Of a stretch of DNA of 64,000 nucleotides, positions 4,515 through 46,320 are shown one piece after another (within the stretch, counting starts at the first letter, position 1; the number at the start of each line of letters is the position of its first letter). Position numbers and translations under genes: made by a program. Under the pieces are notes generated by a model. It made no database searches. It saw only the letters and a program-made list of their open reading frames with translations, and had not been told where the DNA came from. The stretch is from positions 239-64,238 of the forward strand of contig CAZCDO010000001.1 of the NCBI GenBank assembly GCA_964497135.1. Direction: 5' to 3'. The DNA comes from an uncultured Verrucomicrobiota bacterium (GTDB lineage Bacteria; Verrucomicrobiota; Kiritimatiellia; CAIKKV01; CAIJXV01).

Positions 4515-4931
4515 GCAGGTCGACGAAGTGTAACCGCGTAAGTGTGGGACGAAGTGTTGGGAGAATGAGACACCAACAGCCAACATCCAATGGCCAACAG
4601 CCAACCCCCAACTTTTGGCCCTTCCTGATGTGGTCATTGAACGCTCAATGATTGACAGCGGAAGGGGAGCGACTAATGAGGCTTTGTAGAGGATTCGCGA
4701 TGTCGTAGGGCCTTCGCTCGTCGAAGGCCGGCTTGGAACAGGCGCGCCGACGAGCGGCGGCCCTACGGTTTGTGCGGGCATGCAACATCCGGGCTGGCAA
4801 CATCCCACTTGTGTTTTGGGTGCGGTTCGGGCACACTTTTTTTCGAAACCGATGATTTAACGGCATGGGGTGGGCCAGGGTTCCTGCCGCTGCAACCGCG
4901 ATTTTGGTGCTTTAAAATACAAGGAAAATCC

Positions 4932-20893: not shown

Positions 20894-20907
20894 TTGAAAC
20901 AGAACGA

Positions 20908-21300
20908 TTATCCCCGCCAGAGCAGGAGGCCGGCCACGTTGGTGAAATGAGAGTCACCGGTCACCAGAAAGGATCCACTTTCGGTCGCGTGGGCGGCGAG
21001 CCAGACATCGTTGATGGGGATCGGAGTGCCGGCTTTTCTAAGCCGGTGTTTGATGGTGCCGAAGATATCCGAGGTCTCCTGGGTGGCGGTCAGAATGCGG
21101 ACGGTGGGGCGCCGCAGAAAGTCCTCCAACTGCTCTCGGTTTTTCCGCTCTCTATCCCCGCCTTTAAAGCCGGCATACAGTTCGCCCAAAACAAAGACGG
21201 ACATAAAAACGGTATCGGCGCGGCCCAGCACGTCCAGCACCTCCCTGTCACCGCGGAGCAGGCTCATATAGGCATTGGTATCCAGAAGAACCTTTTTCAT
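20908..21300 (-). CDS. vapC: type II toxin-antitoxin system toxin, PIN-domain ribonuclease VapC
   Basis: MKKVLLDTNAYMSLL... with conserved acidic PIN residues (D at position 7, E ~40, D ~95 with LVTGDSHF). 130 aa. ATG (21300-21298) overlaps the TGA of the upstream antitoxin (ATGA). The ORF track extends to a TTG at 21306. Confidence 0.8.
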   Translation of the reverse strand: MKKVLLDTNAYMSLLRGDREVLDVLGRADTVFMSVFVLGELYAGFKGGDRERKNREQLEDFLRRPTVRILTATQETSDIFGTIKHRLRKAGTPIPINDVWLAAHATESGSFLVTGDSHFTNVAGLLLWRG

Positions 21301-21599
21301 TTCCAATCCTCCGGGTCGATGCGTTGGGTGTCAGCCACCCGGGCCTCAAACTCCCGTGCATCTTTCTCTTTCCAGGTTCCACAGAAACCGGCAAAATCAT
21401 CTCGATGCGGTGGAACAGCCGGCACCTTGATCCCCAATCCCTCCGCCAGGATCTGTTTTATGAGTTCATTCATGCTCAGGGATTGTTCCCGGGCGCGACG
21501 CTTGATCTGTGCCGCCAACTGCTCATCCAGGGCGTGGATCGTAAGTGATTTCACAATGACCTCTTTATGAACCGTTAATTGATTCATGTTGCGAACCAT
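21297..21599 (-). CDS. ribbon-helix-helix antitoxin (VapB/FitA-like)
   Basis: ~100 aa. RHH pattern: beta-strand SLTIHAL, helix DEQLAAQIKRRAREQ, helix SMNELIKQILAEGL. Stop TGA overlaps the vapC start. It appears as the C-terminal tail of a spurious 956-aa antisense ORF. Alternative start at 21587 (MNQLTV). Confidence 0.65.
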   Translation of the reverse strand: MVRNMNQLTVHKEVIVKSLTIHALDEQLAAQIKRRAREQSLSMNELIKQILAEGLGIKVPAVPPHRDDFAGFCGTWKEKDAREFEARVADTQRIDPEDWK

Positions 21600-21611
21600 A
21601 AAATAGAAAAT

Positions 21612-24188
21612 ATGAACCAAACGGTCAAACAAAATACGGCGGCTGACAGGGGGCGTTTTTTGCCCGGCCTCACGCCGCGCTCGCTGTTTGCCAGTCTGTT
21701 TTGCATGCTGTTGGCCGGGATCTATACGCAATACTCGATGGTGATCATTGCGGAAGGGAACCAGAGTCCTGAACAGGTTTTGCCGGTGCCGGCCATGGCC
21801 GTTTTGCTGTTGCTGGTGGGGGTCGTCGGCGCGCTCTATGCGCTGTTCAAGGTGCGCCTGTTGACGCGGGCGGAACTGCTCTGCGTGACGTTTACCCTGT
21901 TCTTTTCCGTTCCGCTGATGACCCAGGGCATGTGGCACCGGTTTGTCGGTCTGATCGCGGCGCCTCTGCGGACCTCCAGTTTCGACTACATCGATGCCTA
22001 CAACGAGAACCTGTGGCCGCACGGCCCCAACCTGCTGCAGGGAAGGCTGATCGAGGGGCGTGTCGAGACCTCCGGAAACGCGCCCGTCTGGGCCGAGCTG
22101 GAGTACGAGGAGGGGCGCCAGGCGCGGCTTCCCCGGCTGAAGAACACAACTCCGGACGAAGTGAGTTCGGTCTCGATCGTCGTGCCGGCGGCGGAGCAGG
22201 GGGATATCCGCGGGGTCGCCAATCCGCACCTGGTCAGCATCCTCGCGCGGGCCCAGGGCATGGAAGCCGAGAGCCTGATCTTCTGCCGGGTCTATGCGGA
22301 TGGAGCGGACTCGGGCAATGAACTGTTCTCCGAACGGAAGGCCGAGAAAAAAACCTATCTGCATAAGCGGGGCTTCGTGCGATTGGGCGCCTACGGCATG
22401 CCGCTGGCCGACCAGTGCCGGTCGACGCTGCGGGTGGAATTCGGTCTGCGGGGCCGGGGCGAAGTGATTCTGGCCGATCCGAAGGGAATGAGCGTCGCTG
22501 CCATCGAAGGGGCGTTCCGGGGACGCCCGATCATGGTGCAATCCGAATACGAGCGCTTGCCGCCCGCGGAGCGACCGCCGGGGATGATCGTCAAGCCGGA
22601 CCGGATGTGGAGTCTGGCCGGTCTGAAGTTTCTCGTCGGCGGCTACATCCCGTTGCGCGAATGGCTGAGACCGGCCCTGGTCTGGTCGGCTTTTGTGTTG
22701 CTGCTGGCGGCGGCGTGTTTCGCCGTGAACGTGATCATGCGCAAGAAATGGGCTGAGAGCGAGCGTTACCCCCTGCCGAACGTGCGCATTCCGCTGGCGT
22801 TGATCGGCGCCGAGGAACCCGGGGAGAGCGCGTTGGGCCGGGTGTGGAGCAATCCCTATATGTGGGCCGGCTTTGGGGTCGCGGTGTTCTGGGGCGGCCT
22901 GAAAGGCTGGCATGCGTTCAACCCGGCGGTTCCTGACCTGTCGATCGACATTGCGCTGGGGCCCTACGTTCAGAATCCCGTGTGGGGTGGCATGTTCAAT
23001 ACCTCGTTTTCGGTCAGTCTGTTCATTGTCAGCATCGCGGTGTTTTTCGAATTGAACGTGCTGATCAGCATGGTGCTGGGCTATTGGATCTGCCGGTCGG
23101 TATTCTGGATCGGACAGGTCACCAACCTTAAGGTAAACATTGGATTTCCCTGGCGCGATCAGCAGGCGGTCGGCGCTTACCTGGGATACTTTTTCATCGT
23201 GCTGGCCTTGTCGCGCAAGTACCTGGTGTCGGTATTCAAGGCGGCCGTGCGGGGCGATTCCCGCGAGGAGGGCGATACGCTGTCGAGCCGTGCGGCGGTC
23301 GGGCTCCTGTTGGGTTGTTGTCTCGGGGCTCTGATCTGGGGGCGGATGGTGGGGGCATCGCTGCTGAGCATGGGCGTGTATTTCGGTTTCCTGGTCATGC
23401 TGGGGTTCGTTACGTCGAAATTTCGCGCTGAATGCGGGTTGCCGTTCGGCTACTTCACCCCGTATAACGCGATGCTGATCGTCTCCCTGTGCGGCGGCCT
23501 GCCGGTGTTCGGTGCGGAGGGGATGCTGGTGGCGCTGTTGCTCTCCGGATTCCTTTCGGTGACGGTGTTTTTCCTGGTGCCGGGGGCGCAGTTCGAACTG
23601 ATCCAACTGGGCAAGCGGATGCGGATCCAGCCGCGGCACATCATCTATACGGCGCTCATCGGTATCCTGGGAGGTCTGTTCATCGGCGGGTGGGTGTTCC
23701 TCTCCAATGCCTATGCCTTTGGAGGTGACAACATCCGGTTTCAGTGGGCGTTCAACGGATTGAACTGGTTCATGCAGACCTTCCGCAGTGAATTGGGGAC
23801 CACGACCGCCGCCTGGCTGCGCGAATCCAGCCCCGCGGCGGTGGGCGGTACGGACTGGGGGGCGCGCATGATGGTCGCCTGGGGCGCGATCGCCATGATC
23901 CTGACGGTGCTCCGGCAACTTTTTTCGGGTTTTTGGTTTCATCCGATCGGGTTCATTCTGGGCAGTTCCAATATGATGGAAGGCGCCGTCTGGGGGAGCC
24001 TGCTGGTCGCGTGGGCCGTGCGGGGGCTGGTGCTCAAGGTGGGCGGGGCCACCAGCGTGAAGAATAAACTCCAGCCCTTTTTTGTCGGGGTGTTTGTCGG
24101 CTCGTTGGTCGTCCTCATGTTGTTCTCGGTGGTGAACAGTCTGAGCGTAACGCACGGGGCTACCCAACTTTACCAGGAGATTCCGTGA
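21612..24188 (+). CDS. polytopic integral membrane protein (~858 aa) with a ~300-aa extracytoplasmic loop; first gene of the ABC/M28-like operon; family not recognised
   Basis: >=10 strongly hydrophobic predicted TM segments, with Gly-rich helices in the C-terminal half. Start MNQTVKQ at 21612. Stop TGA (24186-24188) overlaps ATG of the next gene. Confidence 0.55.
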   Translation: MNQTVKQNTAADRGRFLPGLTPRSLFASLFCMLLAGIYTQYSMVIIAEGNQSPEQVLPVPAMAVLLLLVGVVGALYALFKVRLLTRAELLCVTFTLFFSVPLMTQGMWHRFVGLIAAPLRTSSFDYIDAYNENLWPHGPNLLQGRLIEGRVETSGNAPVWAELEYEEGRQARLPRLKNTTPDEVSSVSIVVPAAEQGDIRGVANPHLVSILARAQGMEAESLIFCRVYADGADSGNELFSERKAEKKTYLHKRGFVRLGAYGMPLADQCRSTLRVEFGLRGRGEVILADPKGMSVAAIEGAFRGRPIMVQSEYERLPPAERPPGMIVKPDRMWSLAGLKFLVGGYIPLREWLRPALVWSAFVLLLAAACFAVNVIMRKKWAESERYPLPNVRIPLALIGAEEPGESALGRVWSNPYMWAGFGVAVFWGGLKGWHAFNPAVPDLSIDIALGPYVQNPVWGGMFNTSFSVSLFIVSIAVFFELNVLISMVLGYWICRSVFWIGQVTNLKVNIGFPWRDQQAVGAYLGYFFIVLALSRKYLVSVFKAAVRGDSREEGDTLSSRAAVGLLLGCCLGALIWGRMVGASLLSMGVYFGFLVMLGFVTSKFRAECGLPFGYFTPYNAMLIVSLCGGLPVFGAEGMLVALLLSGFLSVTVFFLVPGAQFELIQLGKRMRIQPRHIIYTALIGILGGLFIGGWVFLSNAYAFGGDNIRFQWAFNGLNWFMQTFRSELGTTTAAWLRESSPAAVGGTDWGARMMVAWGAIAMILTVLRQLFSGFWFHPIGFILGSSNMMEGAVWGSLLVAWAVRGLVLKVGGATSVKNKLQPFFVGVFVGSLVVLMLFSVVNSLSVTHGATQLYQEIP

Positions 24189-27100
24189 TGACGGGGGACG
24201 GCTCCAACGGACGCGTTGCCCAGGCGATCGGGGCGGCGATATTTGCGGTGCTGACCGTGGTGACGGCCGCCGTCTTCCTCCGCGTTTTTGCGCCGCGATC
24301 GTACGTGCCGCCGACTGCCGGAGCCCCGTCCTACGATCGCACCGCGATGCAGCAGGCGCTGACTCGAGAGGCGGTCCGGGACCAATTGGCGGCCATCGAA
24401 CAGTGCGGTTCGCGCTCGCCGGGCCAGCCGGGCCACGCCGCCTGCGGCCGGCTGATCGCCGAACGCTACGCGCAGGCGGGACTGGAGGTGTTCGAGCAGG
24501 AACTCGACGCGGCCTATCCCGTCTGCTCCGAGGCGCGCCTGACCGGCGACGGCGCGCCGCTGGAGGTGGCGCTCTGGCCGGCCCCGCCTAATCACGTTCA
24601 GCCGATGACGACACCGGAGTCGGGTTTGCAGGGCGAACTGATGTTGATCACCGAGGAGAGCGTGCGCGCCGCCGGCCGTTTCGACGACCAGATCGCGCTG
24701 GTCGACCTGGCCCGGCCGCTATTCAAGGAACTGGGAATCAACCCGGCTCGCTTCGCCGACCTGGGATTCAAGGCGCTGATCGTCGGACATTCCGGAGGGT
24801 TCGAACAGATTCCCTGGCGCAATCTGAAGAGCCTGCGGCTGGGTCTGCCGCTCAACTATGTGCGGCTGATCGCGGACGAGCGCATCTTCGCCTATGCCGG
24901 ACGTCGCGTCCGGCTGGATGTCCGCACCGCCTATACGAATGTTCCCGTTCGCAACATCGTGGGCGTTCTGCATGGACCCCGCGCGGCGCGCGGCGCGGTG
25001 ATCATCAGCGCCGCTTACGACGGGTTTACAGCGTTGCCGGATCTGGCCTCGGGATCGGTGCAGGCTTTGCAACTGGCCCTGCAACTGCGGTTGCTCGACG
25101 GCCTGGCGCCCCATCGTGAAACCCTCCAGCGCGATGTCATCTGGGTGTCGTGCGGCAGCGACTACATGGCCCAGAACAGCCTGAATCAACTCCTGTCCGC
25201 CATCGGTCGTCCCGGAGAAGCGGCCGTTGCCAAGGCCCGCCTGGACGCCGATCTGCGCGAGCAGACGGAGAAAGCCGGCGCCCTGACGTCCGTGGTGGCG
25301 CTTTTCTCCGATGAACGGTTCGGGCGAGAGGCGGGTCCGAGCGGGACCGCCCTGGACGGGATCGATGCCGAAGCCCGGCTGATTTTCGACGAAGAGTTCC
25401 GGACCGTTCTCAGGCAGCGGGTCTTCGATGCCGGTGAACGCCTGCTCCAGGCGCAGATCGCGTTCGAGCATAACCCGAAGGATCTGACCGGTCCCGCCTA
25501 TCGCGCCTTTCGGGCCGCCAAACAGGATTTTGACCGGCTGAATACGGCATCGGCGTTGCCGGTCCGGCGTTTCCTGGAGCGCCCTTCGGATGGCTATGAT
25601 CTTCGGGCGGCTCTGCTGGCACGGTTCCAGGTGTTGAGGGGCTACCACGACACCCGGGTCCGGCGGTTGCGACAGGAACTGGCGCTGAATGCCCTGATGG
25701 CGGGTTACGATGAAGTGCTGGTCCTGGCGCCCAGCCTGAACCCGGCGGCCGTTCAGCCGAAACGCGAAATTCTCAGTTTCTCCGGGGGATCGGGAATCCC
25801 GCATGCCGAAGCTGCGGATGCCTTCCGCCGCCTGCTTCAGGAGGCGGTATTCACACTCGGCCTGCAGGATCGGGTGAGCATCGATTTCCGCGGCGCCCGG
25901 CACGGCGACGCCATGGCCGCGTTTCTGTCCGACCTGCCGCTCCAATCCCAGCCCTGGTCGGTCATGTCCTATCCGGCGTTCGCACTGATCAGTCCGCGGA
26001 ACGACTATGCGCATTTCATTTCGCCGGTTCCCTCGCCCCTGATTACGAACCTCACCAGCCTGGCCGGGTCCCTGCAGGTGCTGGGCGAGGCGACGCTGTC
26101 GGCGGCCCATGGCGCCGGACGGTTTCCCGCGCTCCAGCGGAATTCAACGTATGCAACGCGGGGGACGGTTTATGCCGCCGGGATCGGTAATGCCGTGGTC
26201 CCGAATTTTTCCGTGGCCGGGGCGCTGGTGTTCGCCAAAGCGGAGGCCGGTCCGGCCCCTCTCGGGTTCCAGCGACGTCCGATCTTCTTCGCGGATCCGT
26301 ATGGCCATTTTGATCACCCGGTGATGACGATGCCGTTTCCGAACTGGGCGGACACTTTTATCCCGGAGGCGGCCCACTATGGCCCGGGCGGCACGATTGA
26401 CTATTACAAGGACAGCGGACTGACGGCGCAGAATATTTATAAATCGGATATCCTGCCCGGCGACGGGTCACCCGTCAATCTGATCCTTTACCGCGGCACA
26501 GCGGTGTCGATCCTCAATCGAGTCAATCCGCAGACCATGCGCAGTTTTACGGGGGCGGCTTTTCTGCGTCCCTCCGGCTTGACGCCGTTTGCCAGCACCG
26601 CCAAAATCGTCAACGACGATGGTATTTGCGATTTCATCGATCCCAAGGCCCGGTTCTTCGTCACCCTGAAGGCGGGCTCGCCGGATAACGAGCAGGTGGC
26701 CGAGACGCGCGCGTTCTGCCTGAACACCCGCGCCCCCGGTTTCGTTCCGGACCCCGCGATCGAGATCGATGGCCCCGGCTATCTGGCGCAGGATACCCCC
26801 GTGGTGCGGGAGATCGCCGCGGAATCCGCCTCCTCGATGGCCCTCCTGGCCGCCAAACGCATCCGGTTGCAGGAACCCTACGGGATGGTGGACGAGATGA
26901 CGACCGCGTTCCAGGAGCGGAGTCTGCAACTGGCGGCGGAGGCCGGGCGTGCCGACCGGCCGGCGTTGACGCGATTAGGCGAGTTTCGGCAGGCCATGAC
27001 CTACCTGATCCTGAATCACCCGGTCATCCGGGGGTCGATCGCCGAAGCCATCTGGGGCATCCTCTGGTATATGGGGTTGCTCGTGCCGTTTGTCTTCTTC

Positions 27101-29191
27101 TTCGAGAAGCTCATGTTCGGATTCACCGATATCCGTAAACAGTTGTTGGCGGAGGGCGTCATCTTCCTGGTGGTGTTCGGGTTGCTCTGGTTTTTGCATC
27201 CGGCCTTCAAGATGATCCGGTCCTCGGTCATGATTCTTTTGGGGTTCGTCATCATTCTGATCTCGGGCGGCATCACCCTGTTGCTGTCGTCCAAATTCCG
27301 CGAAAACCTCGATGCCTTGAAACGGCTTCAGGGCTCGGACAAGGGCGCTGAGGTGAACAAGGCGGGAATCCTGATGACGGCGTTCATGCTCGGGTTGAAT
27401 AACATGCACCGTCGCAAGGTGCGCACGGGACTGACCTGTGCCACGCTGGTGCTGATGACTTTCGTCATGATCTGTTTTACCTCCGTGCGCAGCAACATCG
27501 TCGACCAGGAAAAGGCCCTGTCCAAGGCCGCCTACCAGGGATTGCTGGTCAAGGAGGCGCGATTCAAGCCAATCGCCGCCAGCGAGATTTCAGCCCTCGA
27601 CAGCCGGTTTGGCGAGATGTTCACGGTCAACGAGCGGGTGGCCCTGGTGGGACGGCGCGACTGGAATCTGGCGCAACTGGTGCCGCCGGAGGTGGAGGTG
27701 GCCGTCGGCGAGGCGCCGGAGATCAGCCGCCAGACCGCGAAGTCGGTCCTGTTGCTGCGGCAAACCGAGCCCCTGCGCGCCAGCCTGCGCCTGCTCACCA
27801 CGAACGGCTGGTTTTCGGCGGCGCAGGCTGCGCAAACCCAGGGACCCTATCCCGTGCTGTTGCCGGACACGATGGCCGAAAATCTCGGGCTGACCGTCGC
27901 GGCGGTGGATACGGGTTCTGTGAAAGTGCGCATCAATGGGGTGGTTTTTGCGGTGCACGGGGTGTTCGAATCATCCTCTCTATCGCAGGCGGGCGATCTC
28001 GATGGTGACAACCTGTTACCGTTCGATACGGAGGGACTGGTCAACCCGGAGATCAGCGACAGCCAGGTGCTGGCCGAACGCGAGGACCCGCGCGTTGCGG
28101 CGGGGCAAACCGTGATAGCGCTGGTGGACGCGTTTCCCGTTCAGGTTAACGGGGCCTGGCGGACGTTGTCCGTGGCGGTTGACATGGGCCAGACCGGGTT
28201 TGCGTCCGCCAAGCGTGAAATCGCCACGTATCTGGAGCAGACCGGGCGGGAAACGTGCTACGGCCTCGACGGTACCGCCTATATCGGGCGCCGCGCCCGC
28301 GCCAAAGCGGTGGGCGGTCTGGCCGATCTGTTGATACCGTTGATCATTGCCGCGCTGACCGTCCTCAATACCATGAAAGGTTCGGTTTACGAACGGCGCG
28401 ATGAAATCTTCGTCTATAACGCCGTCGGCATTGCGCCGCGCTATGTTTTTTTCATGTTCATCGCCGAGGCCCTGGTGTATGCGGTGGTCGGCGCGGTACT
28501 CGGCTACCTGCTCAGTCAGGGGACGGGGCGGGTTCTGACCGCGATGGGGTGGACCGGCGGATTAAATATGAATTTCACCTCGCTATCCACGGTCTATGCC
28601 TCGCTGGCCATCGCGGCGGCCACGCTGTTATCCACCTACTTCCCGGCGAAATCGGCCATGGAAATCGCCAAGCCGGCGGAGAAGGCCGGCTGGGAACTAC
28701 CCCCGGCCGAAGCGGATGAGATGACGTTCGCCCTGCCGTTCACGTTTACGCATTTCGATCGCATTGCCGTGATGGGCTTTTTCCACCAGTATTTCGTCAA
28801 CCACGGGGAGGGCAGTGCCGGGCCGTTTTTTGCCTCCGAGCCGCGGCTGACGTTGTGCGATCGGCGCGACCCCCTGGCGGACGACGGCTACATTCCGAGC
28901 ATCGAGGTGCCCGTCTGGCTCAAACCGTTCGATCTGGGCGTGTCCCAACGCATCGTGATCGAACTGGCCACGGATGCCGACACCGGCGAATACATCGCCA
29001 CGATGCGCCTCCTGCGCCTCACCGGGACGAAGGAGGCCTGGTTGCGTCTGAACGCACCCCTGGTGAGCCGCATTCGTCGCCATTTTCTGCATTGGCGGGC
29101 CGTGTCCGACGATTTGAAACAGGAATTCCATGGCCGGGCCCGGGAACTTTTGGAAGCGCACGTGGCCGAGGGGGGGCGTCTGCATGGCTAA
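24188..29191 (+). CDS. fusion protein: N-terminal signal-anchored M28-peptidase-like (probably non-catalytic) domain + multi-TM linker + MacB/FtsX-type ABC permease (TM1, periplasmic domain, FtsX 3-TM domain) + C-terminal tail
   Basis: M28-like block NIVGVLHGPRAARGAVIISAAYDGFTALPDLASGS, where canonical AHYDS has become AAYDG. Probable EE region reads CGSDY. MacB-like TM1 GLNNMHRRKVRTGLTCATLVLMTFVMI. FtsX domain LIPLIIAALTVLNTMKGSVYERRDEIFVYNAVGIAPRYVFFMFIAEALVYAVVGAVLGYLLS. Confidence 0.65.
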   Translation: MTGDGSNGRVAQAIGAAIFAVLTVVTAAVFLRVFAPRSYVPPTAGAPSYDRTAMQQALTREAVRDQLAAIEQCGSRSPGQPGHAACGRLIAERYAQAGLEVFEQELDAAYPVCSEARLTGDGAPLEVALWPAPPNHVQPMTTPESGLQGELMLITEESVRAAGRFDDQIALVDLARPLFKELGINPARFADLGFKALIVGHSGGFEQIPWRNLKSLRLGLPLNYVRLIADERIFAYAGRRVRLDVRTAYTNVPVRNIVGVLHGPRAARGAVIISAAYDGFTALPDLASGSVQALQLALQLRLLDGLAPHRETLQRDVIWVSCGSDYMAQNSLNQLLSAIGRPGEAAVAKARLDADLREQTEKAGALTSVVALFSDERFGREAGPSGTALDGIDAEARLIFDEEFRTVLRQRVFDAGERLLQAQIAFEHNPKDLTGPAYRAFRAAKQDFDRLNTASALPVRRFLERPSDGYDLRAALLARFQVLRGYHDTRVRRLRQELALNALMAGYDEVLVLAPSLNPAAVQPKREILSFSGGSGIPHAEAADAFRRLLQEAVFTLGLQDRVSIDFRGARHGDAMAAFLSDLPLQSQPWSVMSYPAFALISPRNDYAHFISPVPSPLITNLTSLAGSLQVLGEATLSAAHGAGRFPALQRNSTYATRGTVYAAGIGNAVVPNFSVAGALVFAKAEAGPAPLGFQRRPIFFADPYGHFDHPVMTMPFPNWADTFIPEAAHYGPGGTIDYYKDSGLTAQNIYKSDILPGDGSPVNLILYRGTAVSILNRVNPQTMRSFTGAAFLRPSGLTPFASTAKIVNDDGICDFIDPKARFFVTLKAGSPDNEQVAETRAFCLNTRAPGFVPDPAIEIDGPGYLAQDTPVVREIAAESASSMALLAAKRIRLQEPYGMVDEMTTAFQERSLQLAAEAGRADRPALTRLGEFRQAMTYLILNHPVIRGSIAEAIWGILWYMGLLVPFVFFFEKLMFGFTDIRKQLLAEGVIFLVVFGLLWFLHPAFKMIRSSVMILLGFVIILISGGITLLLSSKFRENLDALKRLQGSDKGAEVNKAGILMTAFMLGLNNMHRRKVRTGLTCATLVLMTFVMICFTSVRSNIVDQEKALSKAAYQGLLVKEARFKPIAASEISALDSRFGEMFTVNERVALVGRRDWNLAQLVPPEVEVAVGEAPEISRQTAKSVLLLRQTEPLRASLRLLTTNGWFSAAQAAQTQGPYPVLLPDTMAENLGLTVAAVDTGSVKVRINGVVFAVHGVFESSSLSQAGDLDGDNLLPFDTEGLVNPEISDSQVLAEREDPRVAAGQTVIALVDAFPVQVNGAWRTLSVAVDMGQTGFASAKREIATYLEQTGRETCYGLDGTAYIGRRARAKAVGGLADLLIPLIIAALTVLNTMKGSVYERRDEIFVYNAVGIAPRYVFFMFIAEALVYAVVGAVLGYLLSQGTGRVLTAMGWTGGLNMNFTSLSTVYASLAIAAATLLSTYFPAKSAMEIAKPAEKAGWELPPAEADEMTFALPFTFTHFDRIAVMGFFHQYFVNHGEGSAGPFFASEPRLTLCDRRDPLADDGYIPSIEVPVWLKPFDLGVSQRIVIELATDADTGEYIATMRLLRLTGTKEAWLRLNAPLVSRIRRHFLHWRAVSDDLKQEFHGRARELLEAHVAEGGRLHG

Positions 29192-31280
29192 AATCGACCA
29201 GGAATTGGAACAGTACCGCAACCTGCTGGCGACCCCGGACACCTATGAGGAGGGGTTCGGCTGGATGACGGTCGCCGGCATCCTGTTCTGCGGGTTCATC
29301 ATGATGCCCGGCGCCATCTACCTCGGGTTGATGACCGGCGGCAGTATGGGCAGTGCAGCCACCTGGGTGACGGTGATTTTGTTCAGCGAGGTCACCCGGC
29401 GCGCGATGAAGACCCTCAGCAAGGGACACCTGGTCGTCCTCCTGCATGCCGCGGGCGTCATGATGGCCGGCAGTGCCCTGTTTCCCGGCGGACCCTTCGG
29501 CGGGCTGGTTTACCGGGCCTTCCTGGTGACCTCCGATGCCGCCCGCGATATGGGGATGCGCGATGCCTTCCCGGCCTGGTGGTGTCCCAAGCCCGACAGT
29601 CCGGCCATCGCCGAACGGTTGTTGCTGCACAGCGACTGGCTCCAGCCGATCGCCCTGCTGGCGTTCATCGCCGTCATCGGGTTGGTCAAAAAATACACGC
29701 TCGGCTATTTCTTTTTCCGCCTTTGCAGCGATGTCGAGCGGTTGCCCTTTCCGCTGGCGCCCATCAGCGCGCAGGGCGCTCTGGCGCTGTCGGATTCCAC
29801 CCGGAAGGAGGAGGACCTGGAGGCCGCTGAGAAGCAGGTTGACGAGACGGGCCGCAAGGTCTTTTCCAAGTGGCGGATTTTTTCGCTGGGTTCGTTGATC
29901 GGCATCGCCTTCGGGATCGTGCAGGTCGGTGTGCCGGCGATTACCGGCCTGATGCTGGACAAGCCGGTGTTTCTGATTCCGCAACCCTTTGTCGATTTGA
30001 CCACGCTGACCGAGAGCCTGTTGCCGGCGACGCCCACCGGCCTGGTGATCGATCCCGGCATCATCCTGATCGGCATGGTTTTGCCGTTTTGGGCGGTCAT
30101 CGGCACGTTCAGTGCCATTGTCGTGACGTTGGTGGCCAATCCCGTCCTGCAGATGGGCAATGTCCTGGCCCAGTGGCAGCCGGGGATGAACACGATCAAC
30201 ACCCAGTTTGTGAACTCGGTTGATTTCTGGATGAGTTTCGGGTTCGGCACCTCGGCGGCGATCGCGCTGATCAGTATTTATTCGACCGTGCGGGACGTGG
30301 TGCGGCGCGCCCGCCAGGCGCGCCGCGCGCGGGACTCCGGGCAGCTCGCCATCGGGCGCCAGGCCGAGATCGGCAGTCTCTGGAAAACGCCCGATATCGG
30401 CCGCGGCGACTACCCGATGTGGCTGGCGCTGACCGGCTATGTCCTGGCGGCCGGAGCCATGGTGATCGTGTGTGACCGGTTGGTTCCGGGCATCACCGGA
30501 TTCCTGCTGGTATTCGCCTTCCTCTACAATCCCTTTGTATCCTATGTCAACGCGCGCCTGCTGGGGTTGGTCGGGCAACAGGTCGATATCCCCTTTGTGC
30601 GGGAAGGGGCCTTTATTCTCTCCGGTTGCAAGACGCTGGACATCTGGCTGGCGCCGGTGCCGATCGAAAACTACGGCAGCATGGCGCAGTCCTTCCGCGT
30701 CAATGAACTCACCGGGGTGCGGTTCCGCTCGCTGATGAAGGCCGACCTGGTCGCCTTGCCCGCCCTGTTCCTGATGTCGCTGTTGTTCTGGGCCTTCATT
30801 TGGAAATCCAATGCGGTGCCCTCCGACATCTACCCGGCCGCGCGCCTCAACTGGGAACTGGCGGCCAAGCAGAACACCCTCCTGTATTCGGCCACTTTTT
30901 CTCCGGACACCGCCGGCGGCGTCCGCGATATCACCCATTTTGCCGACACCGAATTCGCCAAGGCGTTGCATCCGAAGTTCATCGCGGCCGGCAGCGTGCT
31001 GACGTTGCTGTTGTTCGGAATCTTCAGCGCGTTCAGTCTGCCCACGCTCTTTATCTACGGGATGATCCGCGGGTTCGGCCAGCTTCCGCATGTGATGCTG
31101 CTCGAAATTGCCGGGGCGCTCCTGGGGCGGTATGTGCTCCAGAAGAAGTTCGGATCGGGCCCGTTTTTGCGAATGGCCCCGGCCCTGCTGGCGGGGTATT
31201 ACACCGGCGTCGGCCTGATCGGTATGGCCACGATCGCCATGAACCTCATAAAAAATGCCGTTTCCAGCGCACCCTTTTAG
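29184..31280 (+). CDS. polytopic integral membrane protein (~698 aa), transporter-like (OPT-like topology possible); family not recognised
   Basis: ~14-16 hydrophobic predicted TM segments. Start MAKIDQELEQ at ATG 29184 overlaps the upstream stop (29189-29191). Confidence 0.55.
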   Translation: MAKIDQELEQYRNLLATPDTYEEGFGWMTVAGILFCGFIMMPGAIYLGLMTGGSMGSAATWVTVILFSEVTRRAMKTLSKGHLVVLLHAAGVMMAGSALFPGGPFGGLVYRAFLVTSDAARDMGMRDAFPAWWCPKPDSPAIAERLLLHSDWLQPIALLAFIAVIGLVKKYTLGYFFFRLCSDVERLPFPLAPISAQGALALSDSTRKEEDLEAAEKQVDETGRKVFSKWRIFSLGSLIGIAFGIVQVGVPAITGLMLDKPVFLIPQPFVDLTTLTESLLPATPTGLVIDPGIILIGMVLPFWAVIGTFSAIVVTLVANPVLQMGNVLAQWQPGMNTINTQFVNSVDFWMSFGFGTSAAIALISIYSTVRDVVRRARQARRARDSGQLAIGRQAEIGSLWKTPDIGRGDYPMWLALTGYVLAAGAMVIVCDRLVPGITGFLLVFAFLYNPFVSYVNARLLGLVGQQVDIPFVREGAFILSGCKTLDIWLAPVPIENYGSMAQSFRVNELTGVRFRSLMKADLVALPALFLMSLLFWAFIWKSNAVPSDIYPAARLNWELAAKQNTLLYSATFSPDTAGGVRDITHFADTEFAKALHPKFIAAGSVLTLLLFGIFSAFSLPTLFIYGMIRGFGQLPHVMLLEIAGALLGRYVLQKKFGSGPFLRMAPALLAGYYTGVGLIGMATIAMNLIKNAVSSAPF

Positions 31281-31289
31281 GTGCCGCCC

Positions 31290-32330
31290 ATGAGCCAACC
31301 CATGCCAGACCAGATTAGCCTGCCGTTGCGAATCGCCTTTGAGGTGGTGGTGCAGGGGTTGCGCATCCGCTTGGGCCGCTCCCTCGTCACCCTGACCGGG
31401 GTGACCTGCGGCATCGCTTTCCTGATGTCGATTCTGACCGGCCAGCTCGTCAAAAAGGGCGTGGCGGCCGAGGATGCCTGCCGGGAGGAGGTCGCCCGCA
31501 TGGGGAGTTTCATCCGGTCCGACCTGCCGAACTTGCGCGGCAAGGCGATCGGCCTGATCGGGAGCGGGCGCCTCGACGAGGTCGAGACGCGGGTGCTCGA
31601 ACGTCTGCGAGCTGACGGTGACAGTATCCTGCTGATGGCCGACGGTCTGGCCCCCGAACCGCGGCGGCCGATGGCGGGGTGTGAAGTCGTGGAGGGCGGG
31701 CAACTGACCGAGCGGGCCGCCGTGATCTTCGTGATGGGCGACGGTCCGGTGCCGGCGTTCGACTGGCGGCGGTTTTTCGATCGGTCGCGGAATGCCATGG
31801 CGGCGTACACCCGGACCGGGGGCGCGAGGTTGGCCACGGACCGGGAGGAGCGGTGGGTCCGCTTGTCGAGGGACTGGCCGCCGGACGAAATTGCGCGCAA
31901 GGCGCTACAGGCGCGGCAGGCGCGTTTTCGCGGAATCTGGGTCGGTGTGATTTCGCTGCTGGTGACGGTCATCGGCATTTCCAACGCCATGCTGATGTCG
32001 GTCACGGAACGCTTCCGCGAGATCGGCACGATGAAATGTTTGGGGGCTTTGTCGGGTTTTGTCACGCGCCTCTTCGTGCTGGAGGCGTCCCTGCTGGGGT
32101 TCGTGGGCGGACTGGCGGGCGCGGTGGCGGGTGCGGTCTTCGCCGTGAGCGTATACACCTTGACCTACGGGGCCGGCCTCGTTTTTGCGTCGCTGCCGGT
32201 GGCGTCGATCCTGTCGTTCGGCGCAGTCAGCCTGGTCGCGGGGATTCTGTTGTCGATTGTGGCGGCGCTCTATCCGGCCCGCGTGGCGGCATCCATGGTG
32301 CCGGCGACGGCCCTGAGGTCAACGTTATGA
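31290..32330 (+). CDS. FtsX-family (MacB/LolC-type) ABC transporter permease
   Basis: TM1 (LVTLTGVTCGIAFLMSILTG), ~180-aa periplasmic domain, and a C-terminal FtsX 3-TM module (GISNAMLMSVTERFREIGTMKCLGA...LYPARVAASMVPATALR). ATG 10 nt after upstream stop. Confidence 0.7.
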   Translation: MSQPMPDQISLPLRIAFEVVVQGLRIRLGRSLVTLTGVTCGIAFLMSILTGQLVKKGVAAEDACREEVARMGSFIRSDLPNLRGKAIGLIGSGRLDEVETRVLERLRADGDSILLMADGLAPEPRRPMAGCEVVEGGQLTERAAVIFVMGDGPVPAFDWRRFFDRSRNAMAAYTRTGGARLATDREERWVRLSRDWPPDEIARKALQARQARFRGIWVGVISLLVTVIGISNAMLMSVTERFREIGTMKCLGALSGFVTRLFVLEASLLGFVGGLAGAVAGAVFAVSVYTLTYGAGLVFASLPVASILSFGAVSLVAGILLSIVAALYPARVAASMVPATALRSTL

Positions 32331-33124
32331 AGAAGGACCCGATGGAACCCATTGACCCCCGCCGTTTTCAAGCGCTCTTCAATCCGCCCGCCGGTCAGGG
32401 AGCCCCCGTTGTGATCCGCGGTGTCGACATCCGCAAGGTGTATCGCCGGGGCACCCAGGAGACACACGCCTTGCGCGGCGCTACGCTGGACGTCTACCGC
32501 GGCGAATACCTGTCGATCATGGGCCCCTCCGGATCGGGAAAAACGACGTTGTTCAACGCGATTGGCGCCCTGGTCAAGCCGACCTCGGGCAAGGTCTATA
32601 TCGATCAGGTCGATATTGCGCAACTCGACACCGAGGAATTGGCGTGGCTTCGATGCCGGAAGATCGGCTACGTGTTCCAGACCTACAATCTGATCCAGGT
32701 GATGACCTGTTTGGAAAATGTGACCCTGCCGATGAGTTTTGCCGGCCTGAGCGGCGAGGAGGCGCGCGAAAAAGGCGTCCGGATTTTGAAAATGGTGGGG
32801 CTCAGCCATCGCGCCCTGCACAAGCCGGCGGAACTGTCGGGCGGTCAGCAGCAGCGCGTCGCGATCGCGCGGGCGCTGGCCAATTCGCCGGCCATCATTC
32901 TCGCCGATGAACCCACGGCGAATCTGGACCAGACGACTGGGCAGGAGATCATCGACCTGTTCACCCGTTTGCAGCGGGACCTGGGCGTGACCATTATTTC
33001 CGCCACGCACGATCTCAAGATGCTTCAGGCTTCAAACCGCATCCTGTGGATCGAGGACGGCTGCATTGTGAAATCGGCCCGCCCCGAGGAGATCAATTTC
33101 GCCACCGATGAATTCGGGCATTGA
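32327..33124 (+). CDS. ABC transporter ATP-binding protein (MacB/LolD-type ATPase), copy 1
   Basis: Walker A GPSGSGKTT. Signature LSGGQQQRVAIARAL. Walker B ILADEPT. ATG overlaps upstream TGA (ATGA). Confidence 0.85.
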   Translation: MKKDPMEPIDPRRFQALFNPPAGQGAPVVIRGVDIRKVYRRGTQETHALRGATLDVYRGEYLSIMGPSGSGKTTLFNAIGALVKPTSGKVYIDQVDIAQLDTEELAWLRCRKIGYVFQTYNLIQVMTCLENVTLPMSFAGLSGEEAREKGVRILKMVGLSHRALHKPAELSGGQQQRVAIARALANSPAIILADEPTANLDQTTGQEIIDLFTRLQRDLGVTIISATHDLKMLQASNRILWIEDGCIVKSARPEEINFATDEFGH

Positions 33125-33134
33125 GAGATCAATC

Positions 33135-33869
33135 ATGGATACGATCATTCGAACCGAGAACGTGAAAAAACGTTATGTGACCGGCGACCAGGAATTGTGG
33201 GCGTTGAAGGGGATCGATCTCGATATCGGCCGCGGCGAATTTCTCTCCATCATGGGACCTTCCGGATCGGGCAAGTCGACGCTGTTCAACCAGATCGGCG
33301 CGCTCGACGTGCCCACCGAGGGGCGCGTGCTGTTCGAGGGGCAGTCCGTGTTCGACATGACCGAAAAACAGCAGGCGTGGTTCCGGTGCAACCGCATCGG
33401 GTACATCTTCCAGACGTTCAACCTGATCCAGGTGATGACCGCGTTGCAGAACGTGACCCTGCCCATGGTCTTCCAGGGGACCCCCCGGGAGGATGCCGTC
33501 CGGCGCGGCACGGCCATTCTGGAACGCGTGGGACTCGGCCATCGCCTGCATAACAAACCGTTCGAGCTCTCCGGCGGCCAGCAACAGCGCGTGGCTGTGG
33601 CCCGCGCGCTGGCCAATACGCCCAGTGTGGTCCTCGCCGATGAACCCACGGGTAACTTGGACACGAAGACCGGCGCCGAGATCATCGAACTGCTCAAGGA
33701 GCTGAACCGCGCGGAAGGGGTGACCGTGATTTGTTCCACCCACGATCCGAAGATGCTGCGCAGTTCCGATCGGATTTGCTGGATGCTCGACGGGCGGCTC
33801 GACAAAATCATCCAGCAGGCCGATTTTTCGTTGGCGGCCATGAAGCAGGACACCCAGGGCCGTGAGTGA
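33135..33869 (+). CDS. ABC transporter ATP-binding protein (MacB/LolD-type ATPase), copy 2 (paralog)
   Basis: Walker A GPSGSGKST. Signature LSGGQQQRVAVARAL. Walker B VLADEPT. ~50-60% identical to copy 1 by eye. Confidence 0.85.
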   Translation: MDTIIRTENVKKRYVTGDQELWALKGIDLDIGRGEFLSIMGPSGSGKSTLFNQIGALDVPTEGRVLFEGQSVFDMTEKQQAWFRCNRIGYIFQTFNLIQVMTALQNVTLPMVFQGTPREDAVRRGTAILERVGLGHRLHNKPFELSGGQQQRVAVARALANTPSVVLADEPTGNLDTKTGAEIIELLKELNRAEGVTVICSTHDPKMLRSSDRICWMLDGRLDKIIQQADFSLAAMKQDTQGRE

Positions 33870-34281: not shown

Positions 34282-34414
34282 AGTGACAATAGATATCAGA
34301 ATTTGGTCATTGAGTGTTCGAATGCTTTGCGGGATTATTATGAATTTCCGCTTTTGAGTGGGCGCTGCGAATGGCCGCCGGCGATCCATCACCGCAAACA
34401 AAGAACGGAATGCC

Positions 34415-38524: not shown

Positions 38525-38530
38525 GGAACG

Positions 38531-41904: not shown

Positions 41905-41922
41905 GGTTGAAAAGGACAAATC

Positions 41923-46232: not shown

Positions 46233-46259
46233 GGCTGGGTCATCCACGGTTTGAACAAA

Positions 46260-46284
46260 TTCACCGGCCGTGTTGGCCGGTGAA
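46260..46284 (+). terminator. perfect 10-bp stem / 5-nt loop hairpin between the 815-aa gene and the SGNH gene (terminator-like, no U-tract)
   Basis: ttcaccggcc-gtgtt-ggccggtgaa. 28 nt after stop 46232. Confidence 0.3.
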
Positions 46285-46320
46285 CCCACCTGAAAGGGAT
46301 TGGTTGTGAAAAATAATCGT

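Follow-up and report, generated by a model that had tools for sequence, protein, structure and literature searches.

Active M28 peptidases carry five co-catalytic zinc ligands, namely His, a bridging Asp, Glu, Asp and His, and use the first Glu of a Glu-Glu pair as general base. In bacterial envelopes, FtsEX switches hydrolases through EnvC, PcsB or RipC. Type VII ABC proteins, which may be homodimers, heterodimers or fusions, work by mechanotransmission (PMC5985334), and can partner periplasmic enzymes, as in YbbAP-TesA (PMC12646458) and FtsEX-EnvC (PMC7668044). The gene analysed here lies in a 64,000-nucleotide window from an uncultured Verrucomicrobiota bacterium, and an earlier note had described its product as a catalytically degenerate M28-like domain fused to a MacB-type permease with extra transmembrane (TM) helices. 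Both the fusion and the extra helices are upheld: four TM helices additional to the MacB/LolC-type unit, an anchor and three others, are found in one polypeptide with an M28-like head. The note also called this fusion unusual, which holds only relative to characterised systems, given a family of 1242 clusters and a cassette found at no fewer than 502 loci.

An M28/PA head on a MacB/LolC-type permease unit

The open reading frame (24185..29191; this and all features below are on the + strand) is single and intact, and encodes 1668 amino acids when counted from the GTG at 24185, as judged from ORF calls, start codons and full-length homologues of 1650-1760 residues. The true start is probably the ATG at 24188, which shares the overlap TGATG with the stop codon of the preceding gene. 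Independent assemblies from several phyla contain more than 60 full-length homologues that match this protein in length and architecture. The product is an 8-TM inner-membrane protein with a periplasmic head of about 900 residues, arranged as signal anchor, M28/PA head, beta-rich domain, stalk, three TM helices, MacB/LolC-type unit and cytoplasmic tail. The eight TM helices comprise one anchor, three extra helices and four in the MacB unit; hydropathy gave seven peaks, without TM4, and the eighth helix was placed at residues 1467-1495 by a second AF2 model. At the N-terminus, hydropathy and an AF2 helix delineate an uncleaved signal-anchor TM helix (residues 8-34, 24206..24286), and Pro37 after "VFA" is near-invariant (at least 90% conserved across the family).

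The first ectodomain (residues ~47-650) is an M28 fold containing a PA (protease-associated) domain. Taken alone, the window protein had no PF04389 match in Pfam, even at E<=10, no phmmer match in the PDB and no M28 signal in NCBIfam, and a profile of only eight close homologues reached PDB leucine aminopeptidases at just E 0.26-0.37. Single-sequence and eight-homologue searches were thus too weak, and deeper family sampling was needed to reveal the M28 signal. An HMM of 89 family members matched YwaD (6hc6, E 2.4e-12) and 2ek8 (E 2.7e-12) in the PDB, followed more weakly by nicastrin (E 3e-5) and AAP (E 2e-3); Gaa1 and nicastrin profiles were also matched by the family, and 6 of 10 divergent members scanned singly passed the Pfam M28 threshold (P0117, P0119, P0125, P0139, P0147 and P0148). 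Profile-profile comparison by hhalign with the YwaD-family alignment gave a probability of 98.7% with a helical insertion kept, and of 99.3% (E 2.3e-20, 391 columns, YwaD 36-435) once this 160-residue insertion was excised. The AF2 model of the head has a pLDDT of 92.5, and its best Foldseek matches are 2ek8, PaAP (8ack) and BSAP (6hc6) at E 1e-14, all of them PA-containing M28 enzymes, with the transferrin receptor (TfR) and GCPII at E 3e-11, about 1000-fold weaker than the YwaD-type enzymes. The M28-like nature of the domain is thus borne out by the family HMM, by hhalign and by AF2 with Foldseek.

Within this fold, the N-terminal segment (residues ~47-124, 24323..24556) carries a GSRxxGxPG motif and aligns by hhalign to YwaD 36-113, besides the weak PDB leucine aminopeptidase matches. 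The inserted PA domain (residues ~125-240, 24557..24904), recognised by hhalign to the YwaD PA region and by Foldseek, includes the family-invariant G194 and R227, and in one relative (P0147) it matches Pfam PA. An M28-like core with degenerate active-site motifs (residues 241-344, 24905..25216) was delimited from motif positions, HMMER, hhalign and a family census. It is followed by the inserted helical bundle of ~160 residues (residues 345-507, 25217..25705), which is seen as AF2 helices at 346-506 and whose excision raises the hhalign score. The C-terminal M28-like segment (residues 508-650, 25706..26134) is supported by hhalign without the insertion and by HMMER domain 2 against 2ek8, and includes an invariant P614 that corresponds to the Pro in YHTPxD, an M28 motif; hhalign with this segment alone gave a probability of only 10%. 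An alternative alignment with the insertion kept, which laid the C-terminal half of YwaD on the insertion helices at low confidence, was rejected because the excised alignment scores higher and agrees with HMMER domain 2 and with the AF2 strand and helix pattern.

Downstream of the M28 fold, AF2 predicts a beta-rich periplasmic domain (residues ~651-870, 26135..26794) with strands at 656-845 and high pLDDT, for which no sequence match was found in Pfam or the PDB. Three stalk helices (residues 877-949, 26813..27031) come next in the AF2 models; the last runs unbroken into the first extra TM helix, so that a 50-residue helix joins the head stalk to the membrane segment. The three extra TM helices (residues ~950-1048, 27032..27328), identified by hydropathy, conservation and AF2, are highly conserved, with E974 and H1005 as invariant polar residues.

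The C-terminal half is a permease unit of the MacB/LolC/HrtB type (type VII ABC), belonging to the FtsX family (27359..28669). The MacB-type fusion proposed earlier is confirmed by Pfam FtsX (PF02687, E 7.8e-13 at residues 1385-1492), by PDB matches of the family HMM to MacB, YtrF and LolC in this half, and by Foldseek on the second AF2 model, which returned MacB (E 1.4e-9 over ~480 columns, a span also reached with LolC) along with LolC/E and HrtB; MacB_PCD matched weakly (E 0.008). The unit consists of an amphipathic helix (1059-1076), TM1 (1078-1099), a periplasmic domain (1104-1375) that AF2 models as an alpha/beta domain on stalk helices, TM2 (1379-1403), the coupling-helix motif GSVYERRDEIFVYNAVG, TM3 (1418-1454) and TM4 (1467-1495). 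Few stretches of the family are as conserved as the coupling-helix motif that separates TM2 from TM3, GSVYERRDEI.VYNAVG. The protein ends in a cytoplasmic alpha/beta domain (residues ~1500-1668, 28682..29188), defined by AF2 and conserved motifs and with no match in Pfam or the PDB.

Loss of the catalytic residues

The degenerate motifs quoted in the earlier note are all present at the expected places: AAYDG at residues 276-280 (25010-25024), CGSDY at 323-327 (25151-25165) and PDLASGS at 285-291 (25037-25057). Ligand mapping by HMMER and hhalign agrees that AAYDG replaces the canonical AHYDS and that CGSDY replaces the Glu-Glu pair, and the profile alignment, which the note had named as the test that could refute it, does not recover a full set of His/Asp/Glu/Asp/His ligands. 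Relative to YwaD, the first His (H250) becomes A277, the general base (E294) D326 and the Glu ligand (E295) Y327, and the Asp of HxD (D252) is kept as D279, in the window protein as in 88 of the 89 members. From the weaker alignment of the C-terminal segment, the Asp ligand (D323) corresponds to S517 and the second His (H401) to I612.

The note had also considered the Asp of PDLASGS to be retained, a claim that finds mixed support. In both the HMMER and hhalign alignments the bridging Asp of YwaD (D262) faces a gap and D286 falls in a four-residue insertion; its counterpart would be D286 by the register of the D-x-A-S-G motif and by the AF2 helix, which starts at residue 291. The two registers score about equally (2.2 vs 3.6), almost every further offset being strongly negative, and D286 is conserved in 76 of 89 members.

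Across the 89 members, each keeps between zero and three of the six canonical residues. The general-base column reads R/H/Q/G/E/D, being R, H, Q or G in most members and E in seven, and a Glu-Glu dipeptide occurs near the site in a single member. R227 and R316 are invariant and family-specific. As read from these alignments, the head is an M28 fold that lacks the zinc ligands and general base, both in the window protein and throughout the family. Given that this degenerate domain is conserved and confidently folded, with R227 and R316 invariant and D279 and D286 conserved, its maintenance despite lost catalysis indicates that a non-catalytic function has likely been kept.

A widespread six-gene cassette

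The dead-M28 gene is the second of six, in the order DUF6785/6784 protein, dead-M28 protein, OPT-like permease, 349-residue FtsX protein, ABC ATPase 1 and ABC ATPase 2. All six overlap or abut, and on this sequence arrangement they are judged to be translationally coupled. The upstream partner (21579..24188) is a polytopic membrane protein with DUF6785 and DUF6784, identified by Pfam and synteny; its stop overlaps the dead-M28 start, and it adjoins the dead-M28 gene in nearly all loci that reach far enough upstream. The downstream partner (29184..31280) is a polytopic permease resembling the OPT superfamily, based on Pfam OPT (E 5e-9), its start codon and synteny, and overlaps the dead-M28 stop by 8 nt. 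A BLASTP comparison of the DUF6785 and OPT-like proteins as possible paralogues found nothing, and hhalign gave a probability of only 13% for an alignment that is long and collinear, with an ER.P.P motif common to both. The small FtsX-type permease (349 residues, 31281..32330) was assigned from Pfam FtsX, a LolC/E-like NCBIfam match and synteny. ABC ATPase 1 (32327..33124), whose start overlaps the FtsX stop codon as ATGA, and ABC ATPase 2 (33108..33869) both match Pfam ABC_tran, are 56% identical to each other, and retain intact Walker A/B, Q-loop, signature and H-loop motifs; the one cassette ATPase scanned against NCBIfam matched LolD (TIGR02211, E 6e-64) and FtsE (E 2e-59).

The initial impression of a rare family, from seven matches in a first word-indexed search, was rejected after an exhaustive HMM search recovered 1242 representative clusters. 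The cassette itself is conserved at 502 or more loci of species-representative genomes, with up to three copies per genome and variable flanks. It is common among Lentisphaerae, Verrucomicrobia, Planctomycetes and their relatives, and its conservation takes in PVC bacteria, Sumerlaeota and Armatimonadota. Among 121 flanking ORFs, sugar-catabolic genes and GntR/periplasmic-binding-type regulators are enriched in an otherwise heterogeneous context, the commonest flank family occurring in only five. In the window, genes for heparinase II/III, GH20, DUF4832/4874 and LamG/PKD surface proteins run in the same direction as the cassette and form an array with it. The 25 commonest of the 110 Pfam families in the flanking ORFs include no HlyD/MFP (MacA) adaptor or outer-membrane factor, Pfam scans of the window genes likewise detected no MacA/HlyD-family or outer-membrane-factor gene, and clustering of all neighbours yielded no conserved seventh gene of any kind, whether hydrolase, MFP adaptor or outer-membrane factor.

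Candidate functions and relation to known systems

Overall, these observations are probably best explained by a non-catalytic binding head mounted on an asymmetric, LolCDE-like type VII ABC mechanotransducer. From synteny and the overlapping genes, the large and small FtsX proteins would pair as an asymmetric heterodimer, in the manner of LolC and LolE, powered by a heterodimer of the two ATPases. As for other type VII ABC proteins, the long stalk helices would relay ATP binding and hydrolysis to the periplasmic domains. The dead M28/PA head would itself cleave nothing and would instead serve as a ligand-binding or docking module, i.e. a pseudoenzyme receptor whose position or openness may be driven by the ATPase cycle. 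The regulated clamp or receptor suggested in the earlier note is a plausible role for the head, and the one we favour.

Several other explanations were weighed against this one. The simplest, that the M28 likeness arose by chance in an alignment made by eye or that misassembly or an artefactual fusion produced the long ORF, could draw on the single sequence having neither a Pfam M28 nor a PDB match; it is refuted by profile, profile-profile and structure comparisons that are all highly significant, and by the recurrence of the same length and architecture in the independent assemblies noted above. Conservation of D279 and D286, together with an Asp at the general-base position of the window protein, would be compatible with a head that is still an active metallopeptidase with a non-canonical (e.g. 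mononuclear) site formed by D279, D286 and D326. We regard such activity as very improbable, since both His and the Glu and second Asp ligands are replaced (A277, I612, Y327, S517), the general base is substituted in most members, and none keeps more than half of the canonical residues.

Two further alternatives accept an inactive head and assign it a different partner. The head might dock and activate a separate periplasmic hydrolase, such as a peptidase, amidase or glycosidase, under an ATP-driven switch as in FtsEX, a reading consistent with a conserved yet non-catalytic domain, with the secreted glycan-active enzymes in which the window is rich, and with the common control of periplasmic enzymes by type VII ABC systems (PMC7668044, PMC12646458). 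However, flanking-ORF clustering gives neither a hydrolase conserved with the cassette nor any recurrent seventh family, and several copies per genome alongside two conserved polytopic permease-like partners are not FtsEX-type features, which makes this scenario unlikely. Alternatively, as in LolCDE, YbbAP or HrtBA, the complex might extract from the inner membrane a molecule that is embedded there or held by a lipid anchor, whether lipoprotein, glycolipid or hydrophobic compound, with the head as chaperone or hand-off platform to the outer envelope. The two-permease layout resembles LolCDE in its asymmetry, although the cassette ATPases differ from each other where LolCDE has one kind in two copies; LolC/E and HrtB are among the Foldseek matches; and the invariant E974 and H1005 could line a lateral membrane site. 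An envelope-biogenesis machine would however be expected to be single-copy and stable in context, unlike these loci with up to three copies and variable, catabolism-flavoured flanks, and the role of the OPT-like partners would be left unexplained, so that we give extraction little weight.

For the binding head on a mechanotransducer that we prefer, a possible, still tentative, elaboration is that a nutrient resembling a peptide, glycopeptide or oligosaccharide is caught by the head and passed on to the OPT-like and DUF6785 permeases, the cassette being a nutrient-acquisition module plugged into different catabolic loci. This reading is drawn from the multiple copies, the variable flanks with their sugar-catabolic and regulatory genes, the glycan-related array of the window, and the lack of MFP or outer-membrane-factor genes among the families listed. 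More speculatively, and doubtful at present, the cassette could represent a new class of ATP-powered, receptor-mediated uptake machine in PVC-type bacteria, in which the type VII ABC motor would drive the dead-aminopeptidase receptor, with paralogues serving different catabolic loci much as SusCD pairs do in Bacteroidota. To our knowledge, the type VII ABC superfamily is known only for export, extraction or enzyme regulation; with no system of this type known to support import, such an uptake function would be without precedent.

The host phyla specialise in the degradation of complex glycans, and their substrate-uptake machinery is poorly understood. Our searches found no paper describing the cassette, and nothing relevant on DUF6785 or DUF6784 (full text) or on the combination of FtsX, M28 and permease; both DUFs are families of unknown function in Pfam, and the dead-M28 protein, where named, carries no annotation beyond "ABC transporter permease" or "hypothetical protein". 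Given an abundant cassette, a barely annotated dead-M28 protein and two DUFs without papers in full-text searches, a clear function would allow thousands of genes to be annotated, and a mechanism new to transport or to the envelope could come to light. The head also adds a bacterial, motor-coupled case to the short list of M28-fold pseudoenzyme receptors and scaffolds.

Among known proteins, the head shares its fold and domain order, in which a PA insert divides the M28 part into an N-terminal and a C-terminal portion, with the PA-containing bacterial M28 aminopeptidases, namely B. subtilis YwaD/BSAP (6hc6), Aneurinibacillus AP (2ek8) and P. aeruginosa PaAP (8ack), and also has in common with them the Arg of G-x-R-x-x-G, the Asp of HxD and the Pro of YHTPxD. 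These are secreted enzymes, whereas the head is anchored in the membrane as part of a polypeptide with further domains and a permease, has its zinc ligands and general base replaced, and carries the inserted 160-residue helical bundle. The transferrin receptor, nicastrin (gamma-secretase) and Gaa1 (GPI transamidase) are likewise M28-derived ectodomains without catalysis that act as receptor or scaffold in the membrane. The transferrin-receptor-type likeness proposed in the earlier note holds in part: TfR has an N-terminal anchor and a PA/apical insert as the head does, and TfR and GCPII by Foldseek, and nicastrin and Gaa1 by profile, are matched. However, the best matches are bacterial YwaD/PaAP-type enzymes, and the helical element of the head is internal (residues 345-507), unlike the C-terminal helical domain that mediates TfR dimerisation. 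These three proteins are moreover eukaryotic and not coupled to an ATPase motor, and their link to the head is seen at the level of the M28 superfamily only.

On the transporter side, LolCDE likewise combines two different FtsX-type permeases, in both of which a periplasmic domain separates TM1 from TM2, with cytoplasmic LolD/MacB-type ATPases and no MFP/TolC. The cassette differs in having two distinct ATPase genes, two polytopic permease-like proteins and no evident LolA-like partner, and in that one of its permeases bears an additional 900-residue head, four extra TM helices and a C-terminal cytoplasmic domain. MacB is the best structural match of the permease unit, with its 4-TM FtsX fold, stalk helices and periplasmic domain; unlike in MacAB-TolC, the cassette ATPases are encoded separately from the permease, neither MacA nor TolC genes are seen nearby among the commonest flank families, and the putative assembly would be a heterodimer rather than the MacB homodimer. 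Finally, YbbAP-TesA and FtsEX-EnvC resemble the cassette in concept, in that an ABC mechanotransducer is physically coupled to a periplasmic module of hydrolase fold (PMC12646458, PMC7668044), their partner being separate and active or activating, whereas the head described here is fused to the permease and catalytically dead.

Membrane layout and fold of the periplasmic head

The large protein is encoded by a single + strand ORF running from a GTG at 24185 to a stop codon at 29191 (1668 aa, numbered from the GTG). The alternative start at ATG 24188, used in the earlier note, shares its A with the TGA of the upstream gene and has an AGGAG 9-13 nt on its 5' side. Hydropathy (7 peaks) and two AlphaFold models, the second of which adds TM4, together indicate eight transmembrane (TM) helices. 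After a signal anchor (aa 8-34) comes a near-invariant Pro, expected to prevent cleavage by signal peptidase, and a periplasmic region of ~915 aa then extends to three closely spaced extra TM helices (aa ~950-1048, window 27032-27328). After a cytoplasmic linker come a four-TM unit (TM1 1078-1099, periplasmic domain 1104-1375, TM2-4 1379-1495) and a cytoplasmic tail of ~170 aa (aa ~1500-1668, window 28682-29188). The extra TM helices are among the best-conserved parts of the protein and carry polar residues that are invariant or nearly so (E974, D982, R984, H1005), hinting at a functional site within the membrane or at a contact surface for the permease-like partners. The C-terminal cytoplasmic domain is alpha/beta and conserved, with near-invariant LPFTF, HGEGS.G.F, WLKPFDLGVSQ and HFLHWRAV motifs, and had no sequence relatives in Pfam or the PDB.

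Taken alone, the sequence matched only FtsX in Pfam, with no M28 match even at E ≤ 10 on aa 1-400, and phmmer found no match in the PDB. The M28 signal was unambiguous once the family was sampled to the depth of an exhaustive HMM search: a word-indexed search returned only 7 homologues, from Lentisphaerae MAGs, and the exhaustive search using their alignment as query returned 1242 representative clusters (726 at E ≤ 1e-10), most of them measuring 1650-1760 aa and matched end to end. Pfam Peptidase_M28 was matched by 9 of 29 N-terminal fragments of homologues (best E 7.7e-9), alongside nicastrin (5, weak), Gaa1 (2) and PA (1), and six of ten divergent homologues scanned singly scored above Pfam's M28 threshold. 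An HMM of 89 family members matched YwaD/BSAP (6hc6, E 2.4e-12, profile positions 16-342), 2ek8 (E 2.7e-12), PaAP/keratinase KP1 (E 9e-8), 3iib (E 7e-6), nicastrin (E 3e-5) and the Aeromonas aminopeptidase (E 2e-3) in the PDB. In an hhalign comparison with 28 aligned YwaD-family enzymes, each with Pfam PA and M28, the probability was 98.7% with a helical insertion left in, and 99.3% (E 2.3e-20, 391 columns, YwaD 36-435) once aa 345-505 were excised. Some database homologues, truncated or chimeric through artefacts of assembly or gene calling, can mislead alignments (loci such as L002 5574-10857): P0005 turns into unrelated sequence after ~aa 610, and apparent frameshifts break up P0007.

For aa 1-950, an AF2 model made from a 50-sequence alignment (mean pLDDT 92.5, pTM 0.89) found its best Foldseek matches in the PDB among PA-containing M28 aminopeptidases (2ek8, PaAP and BSAP, E 1e-14 to 2e-14), followed by 3iib (E 7e-12) and then by the transferrin receptor and glutamate carboxypeptidase II (~E 3e-11). 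Family HMM, profile alignment and model agree with the original proposal of an M28-like head. AF2 and hhalign together place an M28 N-terminal segment at aa 47-124, a PA insert at aa 125-240, the M28 core at aa 241-344 (strand 270-277, loop, helix 291-313, strand 317-323), a helical bundle inserted into the M28 fold at aa 345-507, and an M28 C-terminal segment at aa 508-650. In the AF2 models these are followed by a beta-rich domain (aa 651-870) with no detectable relatives and by three stalk helices (aa 877-949), the last of which forms a single 50-residue helix with the first extra TM helix.

Loss of the M28 catalytic apparatus

Metal ligands were taken from invariant columns of the YwaD-family alignment (H250, the bridging D262, E294, E295, D323 and H401; D252 is the Asp of HxD), and HMMER and hhalign yielded the same equivalences. 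The three motifs originally picked out by eye are present (AAYDG aa 276-280, PDLASGS aa 285-291, CGSDY aa 323-327), and the substitutions suspected in AAYDG and CGSDY were borne out: the first His ligand H250 is replaced by A277, the general base E294 by D326 and the Glu ligand E295 by Y327. In addition, the Asp ligand D323 is replaced by S517 and the second His ligand H401 by I612; the HxD Asp is kept as D279 and the Pro of YHTPxD (YwaD P403) as the invariant P614. Confidence in the S517 and I612 assignments is lower, since on its own the C-terminal segment reached an hhalign probability of only 10%; they are backed by the independent HMMER domain-2 alignment to 2ek8, by the score gain without the insertion and by the AF2 strand pattern. 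Retention of the bridging Asp, also proposed in the earlier note, is one of two competing readings. Both HMMER and hhalign set the family P-G (aa 289-290) on the M28 P-G, leaving a gap at D262 and the conserved L-P-D286 in an insertion, whereas the register read by eye pairs D286-L-A-S-G with D-N-A/G-S-G and has a helix beginning directly after the Gly, as in M28 enzymes. The two registers score equally, both above nearly all other offsets.

Across the 89 members, His occupies the first His column in only 15 (e.g. GHYDA in homologue P0006) and the second in 4. The general-base column holds R, H, Q, G and others, with Glu in 7, and the Glu-ligand column holds hydrophobic or small residues. No member keeps more than three of the six canonical residues, and an EE dipeptide occurs near the site in one member and at the aligned catalytic columns in none. 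A divergent clade (among homologues P0073-P0141, alignment A4) keeps a more M28-like sequence (YYDS, LDLT and GTPxD, with YHTPLDT in one member) but no EE; many of its members have G-H at the former EE position. Judged from these alignments, the active site of the family looks like the product of stepwise, graded decay. At the same time, D279 is conserved in 88 of the 89 members, and P285 and D286 are conserved too (D286 in 76). Fully invariant are G194 and R227 in the PA domain, along with R316, which immediately precedes the former EE strand. This conservation pattern points to a head that is not decaying as a whole and has probably retained a non-catalytic function. When tested for membership of the M28 peptidases, the head was found to lack the ligand and general-base residues, and we therefore name it an M28-fold pseudoenzyme.

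A MacB-type permease in a conserved six-gene cassette

The permease half was recognized as MacB-type, as first proposed, from several lines of evidence. Pfam FtsX matched aa 1385-1492 (E 7.8e-13) and MacB_PCD weakly (E 0.008), while NCBIfam gave partial MacB, FtsX, LolC and ADOP matches, all far under trusted cut-offs. In the PDB, the family HMM matched YtrF (E 5e-11), MacB (E 3.6e-10) and LolC (E 2e-3), and an AF2 model of aa 870-1668 (pLDDT 86, pTM 0.66) matched, by Foldseek, MacB (E 1.4e-9), LolC/LolE, HrtB, a pneumococcal MacB-like transporter and YtrF over ~470-510 columns. Between TM2 and TM3, at the coupling-helix site of MacB-type proteins, GSVYERRDEI.VYNAVGIAP is among the most conserved stretches. 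We therefore assign this half to the type VII ABC permease units as described in PMC5985334, and it showed the features of that superfamily that could be tested. It is not a MacB in the strict sense, since the ATPase is separate from the permease and no MFP/OMF partner turned up among the window genes scanned or the 25 commonest of 110 flank families. That review describes homodimers, heterodimers (LolCE) and internal fusions (BceB, YbbP), and the excerpts covered here list no arrangement with an extra N-terminal ectodomain and four TM helices.

The gene stands second in a run of six + strand genes that overlap or abut one another (window 21579-33869), namely a DUF6785 + DUF6784 polytopic protein (21579-24188), the large protein (24188-29191), an OPT-like polytopic protein (29184-31280, Pfam OPT E 5e-9), a 349-aa FtsX-type protein (31281-32330) and two ABC ATPases, ABC1 and ABC2 (32327-33124 and 33108-33869), which share 56% identity; in both, the motifs (Walker A, Q-loop, signature, Walker B-Glu, H-loop) are intact. 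Relatives of the large protein are encoded at at least 502 loci in species-representative genomes. The 80 loci retrieved came from Lentisphaerales, Victivallales, Kiritimatiellia, several Verrucomicrobiota orders, Planctomycetota, Sumerlaeota/BRC1 and Armatimonadota, with the nearest relative among them at 62% identity, which hints at a Lentisphaerales origin for the window. Most loci of sufficient length carry the same six genes in the same order, about ten carry the DUF6785 gene and the large gene alone, and some genomes hold 2-3 cassette copies. Clustering of all other neighbouring ORFs at related loci revealed no seventh recurrent family. The DUF6785 protein, which has a ~270-aa insert between its TM2 and TM3, aligns weakly but collinearly with the OPT-like protein (profile-profile, 432 columns, probability 13%, ER(Y/L)P(L/F)P in both), and the two may be distant paralogues in the OPT superfamily. 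Directly 5' of the cassette lies a 232-aa ORF (20872-21570, +) with a 22-nt overlap onto the gene before it. With neither a Pfam/NCBIfam match nor a counterpart in any of 84 related loci, it may be specific to this lineage or not a genuine gene.

In the window, the cassette lies inside a co-directional array of ~37 kb that spans 10.5-47.5 kb. The array also encodes a LamG/PKD surface protein of 2595 aa, an FAD-oxidoreductase-like protein (PF12831), GH20, DUF4832/DUF4874 and several large secreted proteins that match nothing in Pfam; heparinase II/III and beta-helix proteins are encoded upstream. These surroundings (4770-6971, 10478-20893, 34358-47550 and 55972-58992 (-)) are akin to a polysaccharide-utilisation region, their content including DUF2341 in the LamG/PKD protein, a second PF12831 protein and NosD-like beta-helix proteins; several large signal-peptide proteins, among them those at 34358-38524, 41923-43785 and 43785-46232, had no Pfam match.

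Possible roles and relation to known systems

By analogy with what is established for the superfamily (PMC5985334, PMC7668044, PMC12646458), the large and small FtsX-type proteins would form a pair, as LolC and LolE do, on a heterodimer of ABC1 and ABC2. Movement driven by ATP would pass along the stalk helices to the periplasmic domains, and the dead M28/PA head would serve for binding or docking, not as an enzyme. We tentatively favour, as one possible role, capture of substrate by the head for uptake. M28 pockets bind free peptide termini and PA domains are ligand-binding lids, and we favour uptake for this reason, because the co-encoded partners are OPT-like permeases, and because the cassette is multi-copy in variable, catabolism-flavoured surroundings: in a Pfam census, 121 flanking ORFs of related loci were heterogeneous and leaned to sugar catabolism and regulation (GFO/IDH/MocA 5; GntR + Peripla_BP_3 4; fucose isomerase, GH94 and GDSL esterases 2 each). 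No HlyD/MFP or outer-membrane factor occurred among the 25 commonest of the 110 families in this census.

An extractor or exporter in the manner of LolCDE/YbbAP/HrtBA seems unlikely. We consider it similarly doubtful that the complex is an FtsEX-like regulator of a separate hydrolase, the recurrent genes being the six of the cassette. Residual non-canonical peptidase activity of the head, with its conserved Asp residues and substituted ligands, is highly improbable. Overall, the architecture, a well-supported and fairly interesting finding, is shown together with the loss of the catalytic residues, the MacB-type unit, the intact ATPases and the conserved cassette, while the biological role is only predicted.

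Family members, where named in their source, are called only "ABC transporter permease" or "hypothetical protein"; full-text literature searches yielded no papers on DUF6785 or DUF6784, and the single paper in which FtsX, M28 and permease occur together deals with something else. Among known systems, the YwaD/PaAP-type PA-M28 aminopeptidases are closest to the head in fold, whereas the dead M28 ectodomains of the transferrin receptor, nicastrin and Gaa1 are closest in concept. The likeness to transferrin-receptor-type inactive M28 domains drawn in the earlier note is apt in concept and partial in structure. In layout, the closest system is LolCDE.
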